Assembly: GCA_001563335.1 (NCBI GenBank)
Contig: LRSL01000104.1
Span: 1-11,364 of the forward strand
DNA from: Candidatus Thorarchaeota archaeon SMTZ1-45
GTDB taxonomy: Archaea > Asgardarchaeota > Thorarchaeia > Thorarchaeales > Thorarchaeaceae
Direction of reading: 5' to 3'
Length of the DNA stretch: 11,364 nucleotides
A program made the translations under genes and the position numbers. The notes below the pieces were generated by a model. That model saw nothing but the letters and a program-made list of their open reading frames with translations, was not told where the DNA came from and made no database searches. Positions 2 through 11,364 of the stretch are shown piece after piece (position 1 is the first letter of the stretch; every line of letters starts with the position of its first letter).

Positions 2-535
2 ACGATGATTGCTGAAACCAGGGCTCCAGACCTCAATATTCTGGACATGATCTGGATAAATGCAAATCCACTAGAGAGTTCTTTCGATAGAGGTCCTTGG
101 TCGACCTACTCATCAGCAAGTGCAACAGACATCATAGGAGCCAGTGTGGATGCTGTAGCATTGGATTACTGGTCAGCAAAACATGTGCTCGTACCGACAG
201 CAGAGTACCTGAACCACACGTCATACTCATCTCTGAACCCGGATTATGAGCCAATCTGTCAGCATATCAATTACCCCATTGTACAACAAGAGGAGTCATT
301 CCACAACTATCTGGAGCGTTCCATGAATGTTCTGAAGGATGCGGAATTTCAGGTCACCATGGATGAAACTGAGATGAATGTGTTTTTGGAAATTATGTCA
401 AATACCGGACCCGTCACTCCAACAACTCCAACTGGTGATGCCACACTGATGGACTATCTCCCCTTGACAATTGGTGCAATCGCCTTGGTCCTTTTTGTTA
501 TAGGAGTTATCGTTGCAAAGCGTCGATTATCTTGA
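2..535 (+). CDS. C-terminal part of a DUF362-like protein with Pro/Thr linker, C-terminal TM anchor and basic tail (5' truncated by window edge)
   Basis: The frame is open from the window edge (ACG at 2 precedes the ATG at 5). Motifs LNILDMIW and IIGASVDAVALDYW resemble the DUF362 C-terminal 'iiaS.DpVAlD' signature. The protein ends PVTPTTPTG - LTIGAIALVLFVIGVIVA - KRRLS. Confidence 0.65.
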   Translation, partial: TMIAETRAPDLNILDMIWINANPLESSFDRGPWSTYSSASATDIIGASVDAVALDYWSAKHVLVPTAEYLNHTSYSSLNPDYEPICQHINYPIVQQEESFHNYLERSMNVLKDAEFQVTMDETEMNVFLEIMSNTGPVTPTTPTGDATLMDYLPLTIGAIALVLFVIGVIVAKRRLS

Positions 536-554
536 TAAAATCAAAGAAAGTGAG

Positions 555-1112
555 TTATGCTGCATTCTCATATGCTTCTTTGAGCCACTCTATTAGCTCA
601 GGATTGACCTCACTTTTATCTGCCATTCTCACACGATGAGTACACATTGCATTCCACCTGCTGCCCTCTTCAAGACGCTCAGTTGTGTCCTTCCCCTTGA
701 GTATCAACCCAATATCCATCCGTGTCTTTGTTGATGGTTGCACGATTGCGAACTGTTTCTTTCTTCTCAGGCTCACGTAAGTCTTCTTCGGAGCAATCTC
801 TACATCCCTTCCGAACTTCTTGACAGCCTTGAGGACCTCCTTATAGATAGGCTTTAAGGCCTCCTTACCTGAATATTGCTCCTCGACTAGAGCATTATCT
901 GACTTCACACCTTCAATCACATCTCGAACAGCATGAGCTAATGTATTTGCATACCCATATGAAAGACCGTGCTTTTCCTTGAAGAAGTCTAGAATTTCCT
1001 TGTGTTTTGTGAGTTTCGCAGCCCTTACTCTTTTGACCCACTCATCAAGTTTGGTTCCAGTCTTCTCTTCTATGGTTGCTACAACCTTATCTGTCATCTC
1101 TTCACGATTCAT
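555..1112 (-). CDS. DUF4287 + DUF5655 domain protein
   Basis: N-terminal IEEKTGTKLDEWV...HKEILDFFKEKHGLSYGYANTLAH is DUF4287-like. C-terminal VEIAPKKTYVSLRRKKQFAIVQP...MCTHRVR...ELIEWLKEAYE is DUF5655-like. Start moved from 1148 to ATG 1112 (MNREEM), which has GGTGTGGT upstream. Confidence 0.85.
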   Translation of the reverse strand: MNREEMTDKVVATIEEKTGTKLDEWVKRVRAAKLTKHKEILDFFKEKHGLSYGYANTLAHAVRDVIEGVKSDNALVEEQYSGKEALKPIYKEVLKAVKKFGRDVEIAPKKTYVSLRRKKQFAIVQPSTKTRMDIGLILKGKDTTERLEEGSRWNAMCTHRVRMADKSEVNPELIEWLKEAYENAA

Positions 1113-1220
1113 TGACAATGTAATACCACACCAAGATATTAATGGCATATGATTGAAATTTAATTATAATAATCTTGAGAATGGGCCTTGGGAAGAAGTT
1201 TTAGTTTCAGAAATTATATT

Positions 1221-1260
1221 GGAAAAGAAGGAACCGGTCAACGCATAGGTCAACCGGTTC
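1221..1260 (-). terminator. Hairpin + pyrimidine-tract terminator of the propeller/PKD gene
   Basis: The minus strand reads GAACCGGTTGAC-CTATGC-GTTGACCGGTTC, a 12-bp stem with two G.U pairs that forms fully only on the minus strand. It is followed by CTTCTTTTCC and lies 40 nt after the stop at 1301. Confidence 0.7.
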
Positions 1261-1300
1261 AATTCTGACCTGATTTGTGCATTTTTGTCTTTAACCAATG

Positions 1301-2848
1301 CTATCTGCGTTTGTTTATGAAATACGCAATGATCAATATGAGGGCGACAGCCGACACAAGACTGACCATATTTAGGATTGGCTGGAGTCCTTCAAATGGA
1401 TTGGGAGAGGTACCAGTTCCAACAGTCATGATTGCGCTGTCCATGTCTTGTTGTCCAGATACATCGGTCACTATCAGTAGCATTACATATGTTCCATCAG
1501 TTTGATAGAAATGCGATACAGTTGCCCCACTGAATGTGGTAAGGGTGACTGTGTTCCCGTCACCAAAGTCATAGAACCAGCTCACGATTGCATAGTTGTC
1601 ACTCGAGGCACCAGGTTCTAAGTTGAAGACCTCATTCACATCGAGTATTCTGTCAGGACCAGCGTCTGCTACAGGTGACTCACTATCTATGAATACCCAA
1701 GTCAGCTGAAACTCTGTGTCCATGCCATGAGGAGCATTTGTAGGATAGACAAAGTGAGGAGAGCGATCAGCGGCTCTGGCAAGACAGAATGGGTGATCGT
1801 GAGATAGCCAGTCGTTTGACATGTCATCCACCTTGCCAAGATACCAAGTACCATAGGCTTTTGATGCAAACTTGACATCATTATTGGTAGCATCATAGTA
1901 CACGATGTATACATCAGCACCAGCGTGGAGTGTCACACACGATATTGAACCAACATCACCTTCAGTATCGACAGACTCAGATGTCCATACTCCATCAACA
2001 GTCCAGCCATACTTTAAGTCCCCATCCTGATAGTAGCTTACATGCGGTTTGTCTTCCTCATCGAGATCAAGTGATCCGTCCCAAGAACCAGTCCCAGGGA
2101 CAATGCCACTGAATGTCCAGATCCCGGTCGTCTTGTTCGCATACCAACCACCATATGTAATATGAGGAACATCAGTGGAGTCAATGGTAAGAGAACATCT
2201 TCCACCGCCTGAGGGCCAAGTGATTATTTCATTGGTCCAGACCCCGCCAGTCCTGTTAGCATAACCGTCAAAGTAAGCAATATGAGGTACACCTTCTGAG
2301 TCCACTGCAAGAGAGGTCCAGTAAGCGTCATGTGTGTCAACGGATTCGATGACCCAGCTGGAGCCATCTTTAAAGGCATACTTCACATAGAGGTTTTGGT
2401 CTACGAACACAATATGCGGTCTGTCTTCAGAGTCTAGCTTGAAGGAAATTGCACCTATTGATGAACTAGTGGTTATCGTTTCGGTATGCGGTATAGTCCA
2501 ATCAGATCCACCGAACATATCAATCTCGATTTCAGCATAGACAAGATTGTCTGACAAATCAACAAACACGACATGGGGAAGTCCCTGTGAGTCCAGCTCC
2601 ATTGTCCCTTTTATGGACCAAGTGCCTTGACCTACTTCAAGGATTACAACCTTTCTCTGCCAGAGACTGCCATCGTTAGAAACTACGGTTGAATTAGCAG
2701 AATGTACGATACGTGGACTCATGACAGTCATAGAAAGGACCAACAAACAAAGCAGACAAAGAGCTCCTATCCTGAGATTTGCATTTTTGATTGAGGGCTT
2801 TTTGATAGCCCGTTTTGTACCAGTCTTAAATTGTGTCTTATTAGACAT
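1301..2848 (-). CDS. Cell-surface protein: N-terminal signal/TM, 7 BNR-like beta-propeller blades, PKD domain, C-terminal TM anchor + KRR
   Basis: Seven 'L.lDs.g.PHi.Y' repeats. PKD motifs PVADAGPD, WFYDFGDG and HFYQTDGTYVMLLIVTD. Hydrophobic segments at both termini. SD-like GAGGA a few nt upstream of ATG 2848. Confidence 0.85.
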   Translation of the reverse strand: MSNKTQFKTGTKRAIKKPSIKNANLRIGALCLLCLLVLSMTVMSPRIVHSANSTVVSNDGSLWQRKVVILEVGQGTWSIKGTMELDSQGLPHVVFVDLSDNLVYAEIEIDMFGGSDWTIPHTETITTSSSIGAISFKLDSEDRPHIVFVDQNLYVKYAFKDGSSWVIESVDTHDAYWTSLAVDSEGVPHIAYFDGYANRTGGVWTNEIITWPSGGGRCSLTIDSTDVPHITYGGWYANKTTGIWTFSGIVPGTGSWDGSLDLDEEDKPHVSYYQDGDLKYGWTVDGVWTSESVDTEGDVGSISCVTLHAGADVYIVYYDATNNDVKFASKAYGTWYLGKVDDMSNDWLSHDHPFCLARAADRSPHFVYPTNAPHGMDTEFQLTWVFIDSESPVADAGPDRILDVNEVFNLEPGASSDNYAIVSWFYDFGDGNTVTLTTFSGATVSHFYQTDGTYVMLLIVTDVSGQQDMDSAIMTVGTGTSPNPFEGLQPILNMVSLVSAVALILIIAYFINKRR

Positions 2849-2901
2849 ACTATAGTATCCTCATTAGTATACTATAGTATACGTTTGTTATAAACTTGAT
2901 G
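2845..2901 (-). promoter_or_regulatory. Promoter (BRE-like CATCAAG + TATA TTTATAA) with two palindromic operators
   Basis: TATA at 2888-2894 (minus strand). Perfect 16-bp palindrome GTATACTATAGTATAC at 2867-2882. Second site ACATACTATAGTATCC at 2845-2860, containing a perfect 12-bp palindrome (2847-2858) that overlaps the SD and start codon. Confidence 0.8.
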
Positions 2902-2937
2902 TATGTAGCATATAGTATGGTGAAACTTAGATTCAAC

Positions 2938-2979
2938 GGAAAATAGAGAGGGTCAGGGTCGTTAGTTCATGACCCTGAC
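2938..2979 (-). terminator. Hairpin + pyrimidine-tract terminator of the 558-aa repeat protein gene
   Basis: Perfect 9-bp inverted repeat GTCAGGGTC (2952-2960) / GACCCTGAC (2971-2979) with a 10-nt loop. On the minus strand it is followed by CCTCTCTATTTTCC and starts 10 nt after the stop codon. Confidence 0.75.
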
Positions 2980-2989
2980 ATGTAGGAAA

Positions 2990-4666
2990 CTAGAATCTTG
3001 GTTCAAACTGAGTGTAATCGTAGAGTGTTGGCAGAGGAATGTCATAGATTCCTCCTATGAAGTTGTGTTCACTGTCGTACAGGCTTAGGGAGACACTCCT
3101 AGGATTAAGACCAAACATATAGATCAGTGAACCGTCTATGTAAAGAGGCACTATCTCTAGACCAGGAAGCAAAGAGCAAGTAATGCCCTGGCTCCAGACT
3201 GGGATTATGTTGCCTTCTTCGTCAAAAAGCCCACTTATCTCCACGAAGTATACACCCTGCTGAGTCTGCATCACCGCAACACCTATGACGAGATAGTCAA
3301 AAAGCCCGTTGGGTGGATCATCAGTATCGACTCCTTCGCATGTTACAAGACCAGCTAAGTATGCTCCAGGTGCCTCGAACTCTGTATAGTCATATGTTCT
3401 CGACAATGCGACTCTATCCATCAAACCAAGGAGGAGGTTCTGTTCGTTCCTCACACCAATCATATTGACAGCTGAGGGGCTGATCCCTGATATGTAGATG
3501 CTAGGCCCATTGAGCTGGAGAGAGACTACGTGTGTTCCTTCCTCGAGATGTTGAAACTCCTTGTCCCATGCATCGTATATGTGATTGTCGTATTCATCAA
3601 GGAGTCCATACAATTCGACGCCATAGATACCTGCTTCATAGACTTCTACCTCAACTCCAATCTCGAGATAGTCAAATCCAACCACGTCATCAGCATCCAC
3701 TCCTTCATCATAGATTGTGCCAGTCAAAACAGCTGGAGGTGTATCGAAATCAGTATAGAAATAAACACCGGTCAGAGGAACATCGGTTTTTATGTCCAGC
3801 CAGTTGTAGTTGTCATCGAACAGGAAGATTACAGAAATCATAGATGGATTGTACCCGTGCGCATAAATTGTAGGACCATAAAGACGGATGTCAACATATT
3901 GAGTCCCACGATTCAAGTACCCGCTATATGTTTCTCCAACATCAATACGGTTGCGGGATTCGTCCATCAGACCATCTACAGTCACAGTGTATGTGCCAGC
4001 AGTGGCAACTGCAACACCTACTGAAACCTCAAGATAGTCATATTTGCTATCACCATCGGTGTCAATTCCTGAATCCTGAACGACTCCAGTGAGATATGTA
4101 GCTTGTTGTGGTGGTTGTGGTTTAGGAGGTGGCAGATATTTCTCCTTTATAATCCTGGGTACAAAGTCATCGTACTTGATGACTGCGTGATACTTGTATG
4201 CGCCTTTTTCACCAAAGTTCTTAATGATATAGTGCACATTCATCTGACCATCCTTGGGGACAGGCATGAATGGAGGAAGAGGAATTGGAAACTCGGATGA
4301 AACAGGAATGATTTCAAGGGTTCCAACATACTTGTTCCCAACAGTGGACATCGATACTCGGTTATCGTCTTGGAAAGTCGTTTCATGTTGAAGGCTACTA
4401 CTCACAACTCGAATCTTTCCATCAACAGGAATCATTTCATTGTTCCATTCGACATAGTCAGATGGTTCTTCAATCCATCTCATGATTCCAGTTATATGTG
4501 AAACATAATAGACAGTAGTCCCATCAATACTGAAAGATCCAACAACAGTATCCACCATTTTTGTATCAGGTGGACGAGCGTTGGTTGTTGCTGTACCAAG
4601 TGATAAGACCAGTAAGGTCATCAATAGCGCAGCTACTATTGGTATCTTCATACCTTTCATTTTCAT
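2990..4666 (-). CDS. Secreted protein: signal peptide, unknown N-terminal domain, Pro-rich linker, three ~123-aa tandem beta-sandwich-like repeats with DxDxD(G)..YDYL motif
   Basis: Signal peptide KIPIVAALLMTLLVLSLGTATTNA, then linker LPPPKPQPPQQ. Repeats start near residues 189, 312 and 435, with motifs G.D.D..../DYL.v.V.V...G.Y.V...GL.DE/G..IY..G..P/Y.YT.F. GGAG lies upstream of the ATG. Confidence 0.85.
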   Translation of the reverse strand: MKMKGMKIPIVAALLMTLLVLSLGTATTNARPPDTKMVDTVVGSFSIDGTTVYYVSHITGIMRWIEEPSDYVEWNNEMIPVDGKIRVVSSSLQHETTFQDDNRVSMSTVGNKYVGTLEIIPVSSEFPIPLPPFMPVPKDGQMNVHYIIKNFGEKGAYKYHAVIKYDDFVPRIIKEKYLPPPKPQPPQQATYLTGVVQDSGIDTDGDSKYDYLEVSVGVAVATAGTYTVTVDGLMDESRNRIDVGETYSGYLNRGTQYVDIRLYGPTIYAHGYNPSMISVIFLFDDNYNWLDIKTDVPLTGVYFYTDFDTPPAVLTGTIYDEGVDADDVVGFDYLEIGVEVEVYEAGIYGVELYGLLDEYDNHIYDAWDKEFQHLEEGTHVVSLQLNGPSIYISGISPSAVNMIGVRNEQNLLLGLMDRVALSRTYDYTEFEAPGAYLAGLVTCEGVDTDDPPNGLFDYLVIGVAVMQTQQGVYFVEISGLFDEEGNIIPVWSQGITCSLLPGLEIVPLYIDGSLIYMFGLNPRSVSLSLYDSEHNFIGGIYDIPLPTLYDYTQFEPRF

Positions 4667-4757
4667 CTCATATTTTCTCCATTACAATAAATCGGAATAA
4701 TTATTCAAACAGTCATAGATCGAATGTGCTGCCAGTACACAATCCGTATCTTATTTG

Positions 4758-4813
4758 ATATACTATTGTATTCCTTAATGTATACGATTGTATACTTCTT
4801 AATAAACTTGATG
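4758..4813 (-). promoter_or_regulatory. Promoter (CATCAAG + TATA TTTATTAA) with two operators; paralogous to 2845-2901
   Basis: TATA at 4799-4806 (minus strand). Operators GTATACGATTGTATAC at 4780-4795 and ATATACTATTGTATTC at 4758-4773, offset by 22 bp. ATAAACTTGATG at 4802-4813 is identical to 2890-2901. Confidence 0.8.
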
Positions 4814-4830
4814 AATGATGTATCGTAATC

Positions 4831-4878
4831 CTTAAGAGTGTGTATACATTGGTATTCTACTTAGCATACATCCGAGGT
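4831..4878 (+). promoter_or_regulatory. Putative promoter, auto-operator and SD of the RHH gene
   Basis: TATA-like CTTAAGA at 4831-4837. Operator GTATACATTGGTATTC at 4842-4857. Half-site GCATAC at 4864-4869 (+22 bp). SD-like GAGGT at 4874-4878. Confidence 0.65.
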
Positions 4879-4889
4879 TTGATTGAGTG

Positions 4890-5039
4890 ATGAAAGTGAT
4901 ACCTGTTCGGATACCCAACAAGATCATTGAGGGTATCGACAAGCTAGTAGAGAAAGGAATCTATGCGAATCGAAGCGCAGCAATACGAGTTATTGTAACA
5001 CGCTACATTCTAGATGAAACAAATATAATCTCAGAGTAG
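4890..5039 (+). CDS. Ribbon-helix-helix (CopG/Arc/MetJ family) transcriptional regulator, 49 aa; absent from the ORF track
   Basis: Hand translation gives MKVIPVRIPNKIIEGIDKLVEKGIYANRSAAIRVIVTRYILDETNIISE*. This matches the archaeal RHH pattern 'i.vRip....e.iD.LVe.G.y.nRS.aIR'. In-frame GTG at 4887, GAGGT upstream, TAG at 5037-5039. Confidence 0.9.
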   Translation: MKVIPVRIPNKIIEGIDKLVEKGIYANRSAAIRVIVTRYILDETNIISE

Positions 5040-5050
5040 TCCTATCAGTA

Positions 5051-5836
5051 TCAATGGTTCATCCATTGTTTCTTGAACCACTCAACTCCAGTTTTCAGTG
5101 TTATCTCGTATGCATAGGGATCAGAAAGGTTATGGTCAGCACCTTCAACGACAACCAATTCCTTTGGCTCACCTGCCAGCTCATACAGACGCTTGACACC
5201 TGCTAAGGGAACACCAACGTCATCAGTACCGTGGACTATCAACAGTGGTCTGGGAGAGATCTTTGATATCTCATTCATTGGATTGTGTACCTTGGAATCC
5301 TCGACCATTCTTCTCAGAAGATTCTCTTGTGTTTCCGGATCATCGAGACCACGTATCTGAGTAGGATTAGTTGCTACTATGGAGTCAACAGTGGGGCGAA
5401 TCATCGGAGATTCTGCAAACCAGAGTGTATCGAAGATTGGAGCTCTCAGGCATAGTGCGTTGCAGCGTGTATCATCAGCAAGAGCACAAATTGCGACTGC
5501 AGCCCCCCAGCTTGCTGCGTATATTCCAGACCAAGAATCAACAGTCAGGTCTGATTCTAGGAGATGGGTGATAGCCGCCTTTGCATCCTTTATCTGACCA
5601 GCAAGAGTAAACAAGCCATCGCTCTGTCTAAACCCACGAAAATCGAATGTCAGGACTGCAAAACCCACTTCAGCGAGTGCAAGCGCGAACCCGCTAACCT
5701 GGTCAGGTCCACCCGGGAGCCCATGAAACTTGCAGATTCCTGGAAATGGACCCTCAACAGAGGGAATCACGAAGTTACCTCTGATTGTTTCTCCATCTGA
5801 GTTGAACTCAGTGGGAAGGATCTTCACATCTGCCAT
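5051..5836 (-). CDS. Alpha/beta-fold hydrolase
   Basis: Oxyanion region HGLPGG; GFAVLTFDFRGFRQSDG; nucleophile elbow AASWG; acid motif LLIVHGTDD; catalytic His in VEGADH. Confidence 0.9.
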   Translation of the reverse strand: MADVKILPTEFNSDGETIRGNFVIPSVEGPFPGICKFHGLPGGPDQVSGFALALAEVGFAVLTFDFRGFRQSDGLFTLAGQIKDAKAAITHLLESDLTVDSWSGIYAASWGAAVAICALADDTRCNALCLRAPIFDTLWFAESPMIRPTVDSIVATNPTQIRGLDDPETQENLLRRMVEDSKVHNPMNEISKISPRPLLIVHGTDDVGVPLAGVKRLYELAGEPKELVVVEGADHNLSDPYAYEITLKTGVEWFKKQWMNH

Positions 5837-8293: not shown

Positions 8294-11200
8294 TTAGAAG
8301 TTATATTGTCTTTTAGACCGCTGCCTAACAGTACTTGCCACAATTATGATGATAATGACTACAAATCCACCAGTGACAATTAGCAAGATGAAATTGAGGA
8401 TATCCGGGTCAAATGGTGTACCACCTGTGGTTGGAGTAGGCGTCGTTGGTGTTGTTGGCGGTGTTGACGTTGTCGAATCAAGAATTACCTCAATTGATTC
8501 AATGTTGCTCCATAAACTGGCTGCATCATGATCATCAAAGACTCGAACCCTGAAGTAGTAAGTCCCAGAAACCAGGTCGGTCACGTTGAAATTAAGTGAG
8601 GTTGTATTCCATTCTCCCAGAGTAGTAGCAAAATTGTAGTATAGGCTGACTTGAAGTTGGTAGTGATCAATGGCATTTTCATGGTCAGAGCCTGCCATCC
8701 AATTCACAATGACATGCGAAACCGATATTGTTGTACCAGGATCCAAGAGATTAGGTGCTGTTGGGGGTTGATTTATGATTTGAAATGATTCTGTGCTTGA
8801 AACGCCTTCGTTGTGGTTGGTTGAGTTATCATAAGCGTGAATGTCATACTCGACAATATCATCGACCAAGAAACTCCCTATGTTTGCTTCGTATCTGTCC
8901 CCGATTGTATTAACCATAGCCACTGAAATCCAAGATCCTGAATTGACACTATACCAACATATCACACTCTCGATTCCATGTGGGTCGGTGATATTAGCCA
9001 TCACAGTTACTGACTCGCCTTGTTTAGGTGCTAGTGGTGAATGTGTGGGAGTCGATATTGAAGGAGCTACAGTGTCTTCTACGATAACTACATTGATTGA
9101 TTGTGGAAAACTCCAGAAGCCTTTTGTTCCATAATCATCGACGGCGCGGACTCTGAAATAGTAAGTGTCATTATTGTACACAGTAATTACTTTCTCATCA
9201 ATTGACGAGTTCCACCGGCCTAAGATCACTGTGAACCAACTCGTGTCGCTCATCTCAATCTCATATCGGTCAATATATCCATCAGGGTCTACTGAAGCAG
9301 TCCAATTGAGCAGAAATACCCCATCATCATCGGATGTTCCCGGGTCGTGTAGCGTGGGTGTTGATGGGAAAGCATTGATTGTGTGCAAGTACACAATTGC
9401 AGTCATAGACTCAATCTTGTCCACTGAATTGTCGAATGCTCGCACATAGTACTCGTCGGCATGATGGGTAAAATTACCAATGGTTGCTGAGTACAGGTCT
9501 CCGCCCTCAGGTGACATTGGGACACTCAGCCACGCACCCCCGTTCCCGCGATAGTTACAAGTGATGTTGTCTAGTCCATCTGCATCAACAGCATTGACAT
9601 AGACTGTGACTGGTTCTCCTTCGAGGGGGCTCGGAGGGGTGTGTGTCAAACCAGACAGTAAGGGGGCTTCGTTTGCAGTCTCAACACCTGTAAGCCAGTG
9701 AACTGTGTTCATGAGAATAATATCATTGTCACTGTCATAGTAGTCCTCAGGAGCAGCACTATCAGTGTCGGCTGTCCCATCAACAAAGTTAGAGTCAAGA
9801 GCTACACAAACCCTACCGGACCCGTATCGTGAGACCGCCATTAGGGTGATTCCCTCTGCAGCAGGTCCGGGTTGGCCAGGGTCTCGCCATGCAGATGTCC
9901 CGTCCCAGTCTGATACTAGTATCTTCTCAGCGTTCGCTGGAAGAGTTGTAAACCCATCACTTGCGTAGAACTCGACCCGAGAAACATTGTAGGTTATTGG
10001 GTGAGTGAGTAGATTGTCACCTGTGTATGCAATCTGACTTGGCTGGAAGGTTCGCATTGCGTCATCAGTATCCCACAAGCAATTCCTCGCCCAATCGTAG
10101 CCAAAATTGTTCGCAAGTGCTCGAATTTCATCTCCATTGTCTCCCCAGTCAGAAAAGATGAGAATCGATCCGCCATCTGCAACGTACGCATCGATGGCAG
10201 TTATCTCTGAAGTGCTGTAATCATCAGTCCAGTATGGGATGTAGCAAATTAGGACCTCGCTTGCATTGAATAGAGCGGGACTGAACGTGTCCATTCGTGA
10301 CACGGCAAACCCAGCTTCTAACATATCCTCGACCCATGCAGCAGCTTGATAGTCCTGTGCTGGGAACTCGAAGTCAAACTCTTGGTTTTGCGACACGTCA
10401 ATAACCACATGATTTGGAAGGCGGATGGCATTACCCACGATCTGTTCGTAGTTCGAATCAGGGTCCGACAGGTCAAACCCAAGGAACACAACATGTCCGC
10501 GTCCAATGGTCTTGTGAACGCCTATTGGGTCGTCAGTATAATAGTCGTCAATTGCTATTGTTCCATCAGTGGTCGCAACTGCAAAGATGTTACCGCGGGG
10601 GGCTGGTTGATAGTCGATGCGTCGACAAAGTGCATCTCCAAACACCGAACGATGCAATAGTGTTATTGTCCCGCCGGGATACTTGTCTAGAACTGGACCG
10701 AACTGCATTAGACTAGACTCGTTATAGATGTGCAGACCAAGTCCAGGGTTAGACGCATTTCCAAAGTCAAGAAGTATCACGACTCCTCCGTCATCCACAA
10801 AAGTGTGGAGTGCGGATGCCCATGCTAGTCCTACTGTTTTCATTATGGTGATGTTAGCATTCTCTTGCTCAGGAATCAGGAGGATGTCCTTGCCTGACAA
10901 TTGAGTGTCAAGGTTCGTGTAATCAGTAAGGTTGGTGTGCTGGTAGTCGGTCCCATAGGTGTTGTTGATTGCTGTCATTGTGTTTTCATATTCCTCTCCT
11001 ACTCGACTGTCCACGAACTCGGTGTAGACTAAAATGTTAGGAGGAGATAGACTTAGATCAGCACTTGTAGAGTAGGTGCCTCGAGGTGTTTCAATACCTT
11101 GAGGGGTAGGGGTGTTAGTTATTGGCAGAGTTGTAACCATTAAAAGAGAACTTGCCATTAGCGAAACGATTAGCAGAGTGATGGTGGACTTGGACTTCAT
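8294..11200 (-). CDS. Large cell-surface glycoprotein: signal peptide, two GIFT/GldG/DUF4350-like (GATase1-like fold) domains, 2x(Ig-like + FN3), Pro/Thr linker, TM anchor, basic tail
   Basis: Duplicated motifs FVDDGGVVILL / YVADGGSILIF and IGRGHVVFLG / YGSGRVCVALD. FN3 motifs LNWTAS..YYFRVRAVD..WS and VNWMAG..YYFRVRVFD..WS. TTSTPPTTPTTPTPTT linker and many N-x-S/T sequons. Start is ATG 11200 or GTG 11209. Confidence 0.85.
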   Translation of the reverse strand: MKSKSTITLLIVSLMASSLLMVTTLPITNTPTPQGIETPRGTYSTSADLSLSPPNILVYTEFVDSRVGEEYENTMTAINNTYGTDYQHTNLTDYTNLDTQLSGKDILLIPEQENANITIMKTVGLAWASALHTFVDDGGVVILLDFGNASNPGLGLHIYNESSLMQFGPVLDKYPGGTITLLHRSVFGDALCRRIDYQPAPRGNIFAVATTDGTIAIDDYYTDDPIGVHKTIGRGHVVFLGFDLSDPDSNYEQIVGNAIRLPNHVVIDVSQNQEFDFEFPAQDYQAAAWVEDMLEAGFAVSRMDTFSPALFNASEVLICYIPYWTDDYSTSEITAIDAYVADGGSILIFSDWGDNGDEIRALANNFGYDWARNCLWDTDDAMRTFQPSQIAYTGDNLLTHPITYNVSRVEFYASDGFTTLPANAEKILVSDWDGTSAWRDPGQPGPAAEGITLMAVSRYGSGRVCVALDSNFVDGTADTDSAAPEDYYDSDNDIILMNTVHWLTGVETANEAPLLSGLTHTPPSPLEGEPVTVYVNAVDADGLDNITCNYRGNGGAWLSVPMSPEGGDLYSATIGNFTHHADEYYVRAFDNSVDKIESMTAIVYLHTINAFPSTPTLHDPGTSDDDGVFLLNWTASVDPDGYIDRYEIEMSDTSWFTVILGRWNSSIDEKVITVYNNDTYYFRVRAVDDYGTKGFWSFPQSINVVIVEDTVAPSISTPTHSPLAPKQGESVTVMANITDPHGIESVICWYSVNSGSWISVAMVNTIGDRYEANIGSFLVDDIVEYDIHAYDNSTNHNEGVSSTESFQIINQPPTAPNLLDPGTTISVSHVIVNWMAGSDHENAIDHYQLQVSLYYNFATTLGEWNTTSLNFNVTDLVSGTYYFRVRVFDDHDAASLWSNIESIEVILDSTTSTPPTTPTTPTPTTGGTPFDPDILNFILLIVTGGFVVIIIIIVASTVRQRSKRQYNF

Positions 11201-11364
11201 TGAGATCACGCACTATTTTCAGAGGTTTAATCCTTTTACCATCACCTTCTAAAGATAAAAAGCAATGTTGGATAGAAGAATTTTCCAAGCCCATATATTG
11301 GACTAAAGCTTCATTTCATCACTTGACATGCGGGGATTTACGTAACGGCCACGTCTTGATGTCT

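Follow-up and report, generated by a model that had tools for sequence, protein, structure and literature searches.

A 49-residue ribbon-helix-helix protein and GTATAC arrays just past the TATA box in a thorarchaeon: a putative autorepressor in a genome where a second family adjoins the same hexamer

Introduction

Arc, CopG, MetJ and the omega-type proteins are autoregulatory ribbon-helix-helix (RHH) repressors whose dimers sit next to one another on short repeats in helical phase. They come from bacteria, phages or plasmids, and their operator sequences and spacings are unlike those described here. In this study we focus on contig LRSL01000104.1 of Candidatus Thorarchaeota archaeon SMTZ1-45, analysed over its whole length of 11,364 bp and called the window below. 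The window encodes a 49-amino-acid (aa) RHH protein, P0001, and carries arrays of the hexamer GTATAC at three promoters: that of the P0001 gene and those of two larger neighbouring genes. The original prediction saw in this arrangement a self-contained, autoregulated regulon. We are inclined to keep the autoregulation, but not the self-containment: another small protein of the same genome, RHH-2, adjoins an array of the same hexamer.

Several described systems resemble this one in part. CcdA, an RHH protein of the F plasmid, binds as a dimer to the 6-bp GTATAC palindrome of the ccd operator (PDB 2H3C), and affinity arises from multiple CcdA dimers on a row of several such palindromes (PMC5389731). 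The P0001 promoters likewise have GTATAC palindromes in a row. Unlike P0001, CcdA has a C-terminal toxin-binding tail, needs CcdB for specificity and is a bacterial protein acting at sigma-70 promoters, and the likeness is one of description rather than of sequence. HgtR of Geobacter sulfurreducens is a 62-aa predicted RHH repressor whose GTATAC boxes (TTGTATACAGTATACTAA) stand in tandem at several promoters (PMC2817479). P0001 is similarly small, stand-alone and without a sensor domain, and it too has tandem GTATAC boxes. However, the likeness is functional only: the HgtR boxes lie 7 bp apart and serve a bacterial global metabolic regulon, whereas the window hexamers are 10-12 bp apart. Finally, aCcr1, an RHH protein of about 58 aa from the Sulfolobales and their viruses, has its boxes located after the TATA box but before the start codon (PMC9976878). 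There, a 9-bp box in one or two copies belongs to a cell-cycle regulon in Thermoproteota, while P0001 is found with three or four GTATAC hexamers at 10/12 bp, local cargo genes and an Asgard host; again the likeness is functional only.

Nearest to P0001 by sequence are CdrS, the haloarchaeal RHH cell-division regulator, and the N-terminal RHH domain of NikR, although P0001 has neither the ftsZ2 neighbour of the former nor the C-terminal nickel-binding domain of the latter. The half-site of E. coli NikR, GTATGA, resembles GTATAC. By analogy, P0001 may work like the cooperative CopG-, Arc- and omega-type repressors and like aCcr1 or HgtR. The literature within reach holds no description of the P0001 or the RHH-2 family; at full-text level, RHH combined with GTATAC leads to ccdAB only, and by title and abstract there is no Asgard RHH regulon among the matches listed. 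The earlier claim of an undescribed regulon therefore holds for the P0001 family in full-text literature, but the kind of switch is well described.

GTATAC arrays at three promoters

The window is the entire contig C104 of the archaeal assembly G000 (3.54 Mb, 119 contigs). G000 has TBP (TATA-binding protein) genes, the TBP model having matched archaeal genomes alone among the controls, and the sequencing runs that contain window DNA are labelled marine sediment or seawater metagenome. The elements under discussion are listed below; array spacings are start-to-start distances between hexamers in the direction of transcription.

4890..5039, plus strand: gene of the 49-aa RHH protein (P0001; Pfam RHH_1), divergent from the 558-aa gene
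2990..4666, minus strand: gene of a 558-aa secreted-type protein (P0003), from its translation
1301..2848, minus strand: gene of a 515-aa membrane-anchored protein (P0002), from its translation and PKD_4; same strand as the 558-aa gene
2845..2882, minus strand: array A, GTATAC-N4-GTATAC-N6-GGATAC-N4-GTATGT, spacing 10-12-10
4758..4795, minus strand: array B, GTATAC-N4-GTATAC-N6-GAATAC-N4-GTATAT, spacing 10-12-10
4842..4869, plus strand: array C, GTATAC-N4-GTATTC-N6-GCATAC, spacing 10+12 bp, at the RHH gene's own promoter, 21 nt 5' of the ATG
2888..2894, minus strand: TATA-like box TTTATAA of the 515-aa gene promoter, starting 12 bp before array A
4799..4806, minus strand: TATA-like box TTTATTAA of the 558-aa gene promoter, starting 11 bp before array B
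4831..4838, plus strand: putative weak TATA-like box CTTAAGAG, starting 11 bp before array C

Direct reading and a pattern search place GTATACTATAGTATAC at 2867-2882 with no mismatch to GTATAC-N4-GTATAC, and GTATACGATTGTATAC (4780-4795, no mismatch) and GTATACATTGGTATTC (4842-4857, one mismatch) also lie where the original prediction had put them. The layout it had proposed is found at all three promoters as well, with a TATA-like box whose first base lies 11-12 bp before the site; the arrays begin 3-5 bp past the box. Second, degenerate sites 22 bp further on had been claimed too, and they are present at each promoter: ATATACTATTGTATTC at 4758-4773 (two mismatches), the half-site GCATAC at 4864-4869 (one mismatch) and ACATACTATAGTATCC at 2845-2860, the last being weaker, with three mismatches, than had been implied. 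All three arrays are thus of a 10+12 type just downstream of TATA. The ATG of the 515-aa gene falls inside the last hexamer of array A, and promoters A and B have in common, at 15 of 16 positions, a 16-nt block next to the array (ATAAACTTGATGwATG), which includes the TATA-like box of promoter B.

These sites are not a product of chance. At up to two mismatches the window has 4 matches against a shuffle mean of 0.35, and none of 200 shuffles reaches 4. The proposed genome scan returned three perfect 16-mers in 3.54 Mb, two of them in the window, while the 547 GTATAC hexamers of the genome would lead one to expect, by simple arithmetic, about 0.085 perfect pairs per spacing. Matches to three hexamers in a row (up to two mismatches) are concentrated as well: 12 of 17 occupy 6 of 81 spacing cells, all of them combinations of 10, 11 and 12 (or 13) bp. 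At spacings of 10, 11 and 12 bp the genome's only such triples are arrays A, B and C and three others, on contigs C21, C51 and C86. Two weaker candidates were also seen: at C66:3484 a pair of hexamers at a distance of 23 bp precedes the gene of a secreted protein, and C69:118795 has 12,12 spacing with three mismatches. A match at C41:19006 is intragenic and was put down to chance.

Contigs of four DNA runs were compared with the window. A variant contig in run X1 matches 4841-5345 with no change in array C (4842-4869) and 10 changes in 4870-4888, and upstream of the array its DNA is less than 85% alike, too different to align at 85%. By this alignment, array C is unchanged between diverged flanks, a small footprint at the strain level.

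The 49-aa RHH protein

P0001 matches Pfam RHH_1 (PF01402) over residues 7-41 with 27.3 bits against a gathering cut-off of 20.5 (E 3.3e-6) and by this profile is a genuine member of the RHH superfamily, as the original prediction had said of the divergent 49-aa protein. Against the PDB, its family profile finds the NikR RHH domains 2bj1 (E 1.2e-4) and 1q5v (E 4e-3). In the NikR alignment, I4, V6 and I8 point into the core and V3, P5 and R7 outward on the beta-strand, which is followed by helix A and by a helix B that starts NRSAAIR. V3, P5 and R7 align with R3, T5 and T7 of E. coli NikR, which we take to be DNA-contact residues, and are the predicted DNA-facing residues of P0001. The larger family comprises 18 metagenomic homologues at 67-84% identity in a large protein database; R7 and P9 are invariant in it, R7 in 19 of 19 members. 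The likely start is ATG 4890, because the orthologues begin MKVIPVR and because the strain variant changes the GTG at 4887.

Three familiar identities were considered for this protein and set aside. For CdrS, the NCBIfam model (NF058555) gives 37.8 bits (E 1.4e-9), below its cut-off of 100, and there is no ftsZ-like gene among the window genes. For NikR, the protein ends at residue 49 without a metal-binding domain, and with the NikR models it reaches 17-23 bits, where their cut-offs are 83-175. A type II antitoxin of the CcdA, ParD or RelB type was rejected because there is no adjoining toxin gene and, in a protein of 49 aa, no C-terminal tail extending past the RHH domain; the ParD model reaches E 0.039, under its cut-off. 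What follows P0001 is a convergent gene and not a co-transcribed toxin:

5051-5836, convergent with the RHH gene: alpha/beta hydrolase gene

G000 has four more small RHH_1 paralogues, at C42:6827, C107:13159, C81:26946 and C13:96659. They are of a Y-P-N/S-R-S-E-[AV]-I-R type, genus-wide and without GTATAC arrays, and they look likelier than P0001 to be CdrS-like.

P0001 orthologues and their promoters

Close relatives of the host do not carry P0001. None of 27 genus relatives has an orthologue, the best matches (41-54% identity) being orthologues of the C42 paralogue. Among 400 genomes of the phylum there is no intact one, and the best match among species-representative genomes reaches 66%, which is no close orthologue. 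Viral contigs hold no relative of P0001 or RHH-2, and a viral origin was rejected.

The informative comparison comes from metagenomes. Seven loci with orthologues 71-84% identical to P0001 were compared, of which five are distinct, because L079 duplicates L078 and the upstream DNA of L075 and L077 agrees at 99.6%. All seven have GTATAC-N4-GTATnn-N6-(G/A)(T/A)ATAC 0-3 bp past a TATA box, with the RHH start about 50 nt downstream, and all seven have a further GTATAC array past the TATA box of the divergent gene. At the position of the window's poor box CTTAAGAG, the orthologous promoters have TTTATAT or TTTATTTT. With the window counted, the own-promoter spacing is 10+12 in six of six distinct loci of the family, and no alternative conserved element is visible in P0001 promoters. 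The divergent gene itself varies, coding for a 121-aa membrane protein (L073), an AIM24-like protein (L074-L077) or a lysine-rich one (L078/L079). From these loci, the P0001 gene with its bidirectional operator-promoter region appears to behave as a conserved module, while the opposite gene changes between lineages. Arrays are absent at four more distant RHH_1 loci (up to 67% identity), and the eight other RHH paralogue promoters of G000 have none either, their best triple having at least seven mismatches.

In one phylum genome, G369, a P0001-family pseudogene lies at C68:8895-9023 (L135), with an in-frame stop, loss of the P-N-K residues and no arrays. It adjoins a 213-aa gene that also neighbours the L073 orthologue and, in G006, an orphan array (L025). 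This shared neighbour suggests an ancestral location of P0001 with repeated loss. A low-stringency tblastn found no P0001 remnant at the G006 locus or at G000:C18.

A second, RHH-like family beside the same hexamer

The original prediction had the regulon self-contained, and this part of it is not supported: the same kind of array occurs outside the window at C21, C51 and C86, and the C21 array adjoins another small gene.

G000:C21:22335-22493: gene of RHH-2 (52 aa), adjoining the C21 array

At this locus (G000:C21:22335-22882, corresponding to L023:1272-1819) a conserved divergent pair has three perfect GTATAC hexamers between its genes, the partner gene encoding a protein of 100 aa that has C-x2-C...C-x2-C motifs but matches no family. 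The RHH-2 proteins (45-52 aa, M-x-D-T-M-V-R-I-P-K-A-L...SFPAFVREA) look RHH-like. They have no Pfam or NCBIfam match below E 0.07, and against PDB profiles there is a marginal match to CopG-family 9kkd (E 0.088). The AlphaFold2 model (pLDDT 84) shows an extended N-terminus and helices at 10-17 and 28-51, as expected of an RHH monomer. The fold search gave no match at E ≤ 0.001; the top three Foldseek matches are all RHH proteins (ParD2, pCXC100 ParB and PrpA, TM 0.57-0.69), but at E > 1. In all 14 sequences compared, D3, M5 and R7, which are predicted to face the DNA, are the same.

RHH-2 is present in 27 of 85 relatives from the same family (f1) and in none of 315 genomes from the phylum's other families. 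Perfect 16-mers were seen in 14 relatives out of the 27 with RHH-2 versus 3 of the 58 RHH-2-negative ones, where all three lie inside open reading frames (Fisher 2e-6, to be read with the caution that related genomes are not independent). At least 12 genomes have an array no further than about 600 bp from the RHH-2 gene. Within the genus, 10 of 27 relatives have a perfect 16-mer, and five of these matches are the C21-type locus. The main clade has GTATAC-N4-GTATAC-N5-GTATAC-gaaatg-TTATATA in 11 of 11 promoters, that is, a 10+11 array abutting the upstream side of TATA, the side of the B recognition element (BRE). More distant clades have GTATAC or GTATGC on both sides of TATA, and a 10+10 triple before the downstream gene.

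P0001 and RHH-2 are not detectably homologous, and a relationship between them was rejected on an hhalign probability of 2.7%. In both, position 7 of the strand is always Arg, with x-Pro after it, and position 5 is hydrophobic (Pro in P0001, Met in RHH-2). Convergence on one hexamer is plausible, since the unrelated RHH proteins CcdA and HgtR are already known to use GTATAC. The arrays at C21, C86 and perhaps C51 seem to belong to RHH-2. The regulon of P0001 would then not be closed: RHH-2 appears to use the same hexamer, at 10+11 and upstream of its TATA box, and cross-binding between the two proteins is possible.

The other two arrays deserve a brief description. C86:49082 and C51:12557 both read GTATACAATTGTATkC-N5/6-GTATAC. 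Sites like GTATACAATTGTATkC recur in several RHH-2-positive relatives; a genus scan at one mismatch, dominated by background (a reversed control pattern was equally or more frequent), was used only to spot this recurrence. The C86 array precedes a conserved open reading frame of 39-41 aa (G000:C86:49082-49261 and L026, G042:C85; M-A-V-A...Y-K-K-V-V-E-D-M-R) without a family match, and in two genomes a TATA box and GTATAC-N4-GTATwC-N5-GyATAC stand before it. The C51 array (G000:C51:12546-12584) has four hexamers spaced 11-10-12, lies intergenic after an ABC-permease-like gene with no obvious plus-strand open reading frame downstream, and has 'atgtagaaaaa' in common with the C86 promoter; it could be the promoter of a small RNA or a relic.

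Which protein reads the arrays

Autorepression together with repression of adjacent genes is the most economical reading, because the P0001 family is always accompanied by arrays just past TATA at its own and the divergent promoter (seven of seven loci). We lean, if not strongly, towards the view that P0001 represses its own gene and also the two cargo genes next to it; the autoregulated switch of the original prediction gains support from the orthologous loci, while the identity of the binder is what we infer from them. The corresponding view of the genome as a whole, that each RHH family binds its own arrays, is favoured for three reasons. Arrays accompany whichever neighbour P0001 has, as one would expect if the regulator is local but hardly if it is distant. 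The grammar differs, 10+12 downstream of TATA versus 10+11 upstream. And on L079 an orthologue with arrays probably lives without RHH-2, because the CorA gene on that contig is nearest to families other than f1 (63-70% identity to f32, f31, f4 and f21; about 50% to f1) and RHH-2 was found in f1 only.

If so, each GTATAC palindrome would take up one RHH dimer, the two-stranded beta-ribbon entering the major groove in the manner of CcdA on the same hexamer. Along an array, three or four dimers would be lined up on a single helical face, paired at 10 bp and with units repeating every 22 bp. Occupancy of the array, which reaches from 3-5 bp past TATA across the expected start, would block recruitment of TFB and RNA polymerase, in the way described for the aCcr1 boxes (PMC9976878). 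The outcome would be negative autoregulation and repression of the cargo genes. P0001 is without a sensor domain and would therefore be controlled by its own level, through negative feedback, or by a partner. In G000 the module would stand at the head of a 3.9-kb cassette, specific to the species, that encodes two exported or anchored proteins.

Several observations weigh against this picture. The box CTTAAGAG before array C is a poor TATA, and the promoter of the RHH gene in G000 is uncertain. Arrays on the cargo side are less regular, with 22+11 at L074 and 11-11-22 at L076. The spacing counts are drawn from orthologous promoters, which are not independent events, and the lineage of L079 rests on one gene (CorA). 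In most relatives arrays are present without any P0001 orthologue. Lastly, G006 (83% complete) keeps an orthologous 10-12-10 array before the 121-aa membrane-protein gene with no P0001 gene found at that place or in the rest of the genome; either a 10+12 array can apparently serve another factor as well, plausibly RHH-2, or the G006 array is a relic.

The strongest competitor is that RHH-2, or another trans-acting factor of the family, is the sole binder of GTATAC arrays, with the window promoters among its targets and P0001 binding some other site. The original prediction had named tracking of another regulator as what would count against it, and this is found in part: perfect 16-mers do follow RHH-2 (14/27 versus 3/58, the exceptions inside open reading frames), arrays lie close to its gene in at least 12 genomes, its predicted DNA-facing residues are constant in all 14 sequences, and genomes without P0001 have the C86-type and C51-type arrays and the 10-12-10 array of L025. 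P0001 orthologues co-occur with arrays too, however. RHH-2 as the only binder leaves unexplained why an array stands at whichever gene adjoins a P0001 orthologue, and why P0001 and arrays occur on a contig nearest to families with no RHH-2 match. No other conserved element is visible in the P0001 promoters, and the two spacings and positions relative to TATA suggest two proteins. We regard it as unlikely.

Less likely still, the two proteins would be interchangeable on all arrays, in one merged regulon or in competition, with spacing irrelevant. One hexamer is common to both, each protein has x-Pro after Arg 7 and a hydrophobic position 5 (Pro or Met), several unrelated RHH proteins bind GTATAC, and G006 has kept its 10-12-10 array with RHH-2 but no P0001. 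Yet each set of arrays has its own consistent spacing and placement, and in families not detectably homologous (hhalign 2.7%) the dimer-dimer contacts probably differ. That the arrays are not operators at all, but by-products of promoter duplication (to which the 16-nt block common to promoters A and B does point as a contributor), restriction-site-like palindromes (GTATAC is palindromic and its 547 copies are, by arithmetic, about half the base-composition prediction) or chance, is very improbable given the 0/200 shuffles, the confinement of spacing to 10-12 bp, the retention of arrays at loci whose flanking genes differ and in more than one genus, and the strain-level conservation of array C between diverged flanks.

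The cassette and its surroundings

Between the flanking genes, DNA 1177-5050, the 3.9-kb three-gene cassette, has no counterpart in the 27 genus relatives, while both flanks have one. In G005 the genes that flank the cassette position are adjacent, and the equivalent intervals in eight relatives hold other genes and no arrays. An insertion signature was looked for and rejected, there being no direct or inverted repeats flanking 1177-5050. On a wider scale, comparison of 535-5050 with G005:C14, G014:C84, G001:C8 and G042:C155 shows a variable island between a conserved first gene and the hydrolase gene, and in G014, G016 and G012 extra short copies (about 60-120 bp) of the hydrolase 3' end lie nearby.

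The 558-aa protein has an N-terminal hydrophobic, signal-like segment and three repeats of about 122-125 aa, 366-375 nt apart. It has no Pfam or NCBIfam match and no match in the 27 relatives, and its atlas neighbours are weak and unnamed. The 515-aa protein has an N-terminal hydrophobic segment, about seven D-x-x-G/D-x-P-H-[IV] repeats, one PKD domain (PKD_4, E 7.5e-17, residues 390-473) and a C-terminal hydrophobic helix followed by KRR; in the 27 relatives, its PKD domain alone finds matches. By these comparisons both large genes are species-specific cargo and not conserved partners of the RHH gene. A GC-rich hairpin at 2951-2979 (GGTCAGGGTC...GACCCTGAC), with a T-rich run after it on the minus strand just past the 558-aa stop codon, looks like a terminator, and the 558-aa and 515-aa genes are therefore probably separate transcription units.

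A third large surface-type protein is encoded in the window, by a 971-aa gene at 8294-11209 (minus strand). It has a signal-like N-terminus, a C-terminal hydrophobic helix and weak Ig/PKD-like and DUF4350-like matches; its gene is 66-67% identical in DNA in several relatives and is without a GTATAC array.

Significance

To our knowledge, very few pairs of transcription factor and operator have been characterised in Asgard archaea. The mechanism, a repressor switch, is of an ordinary type, and the pair described here is most likely an ordinary self-regulating switch of a well-known kind with P0001 as its repressor. What seems unusual is a second, unrelated and RHH-like protein that shares the hexamer in the same genome. 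More tentatively, and with clearly less confidence than in the autorepression itself, one might picture two unrelated RHH families that read the same GTATAC and are kept apart, or deliberately coupled, by nothing but array grammar (for P0001 a 22-bp unit immediately past TATA, for RHH-2 a 21-bp unit abutting the BRE side of TATA), with P0001 and its bidirectional operator-promoter acting as a portable plug-in switch that captures different cargo in each lineage, here a species-specific cell-surface pair.

A 49-aa protein and short, well-defined DNA fragments make a cheap and directly testable pair. With one hexamer but different spacing and placement, two small proteins of RHH or RHH-like type would lend themselves to the question of how spacing keeps apart or couples regulators that have a recognition sequence in common. 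If the module truly travels with changing cargo, it would show how acquired accessory surface-protein genes come under control.

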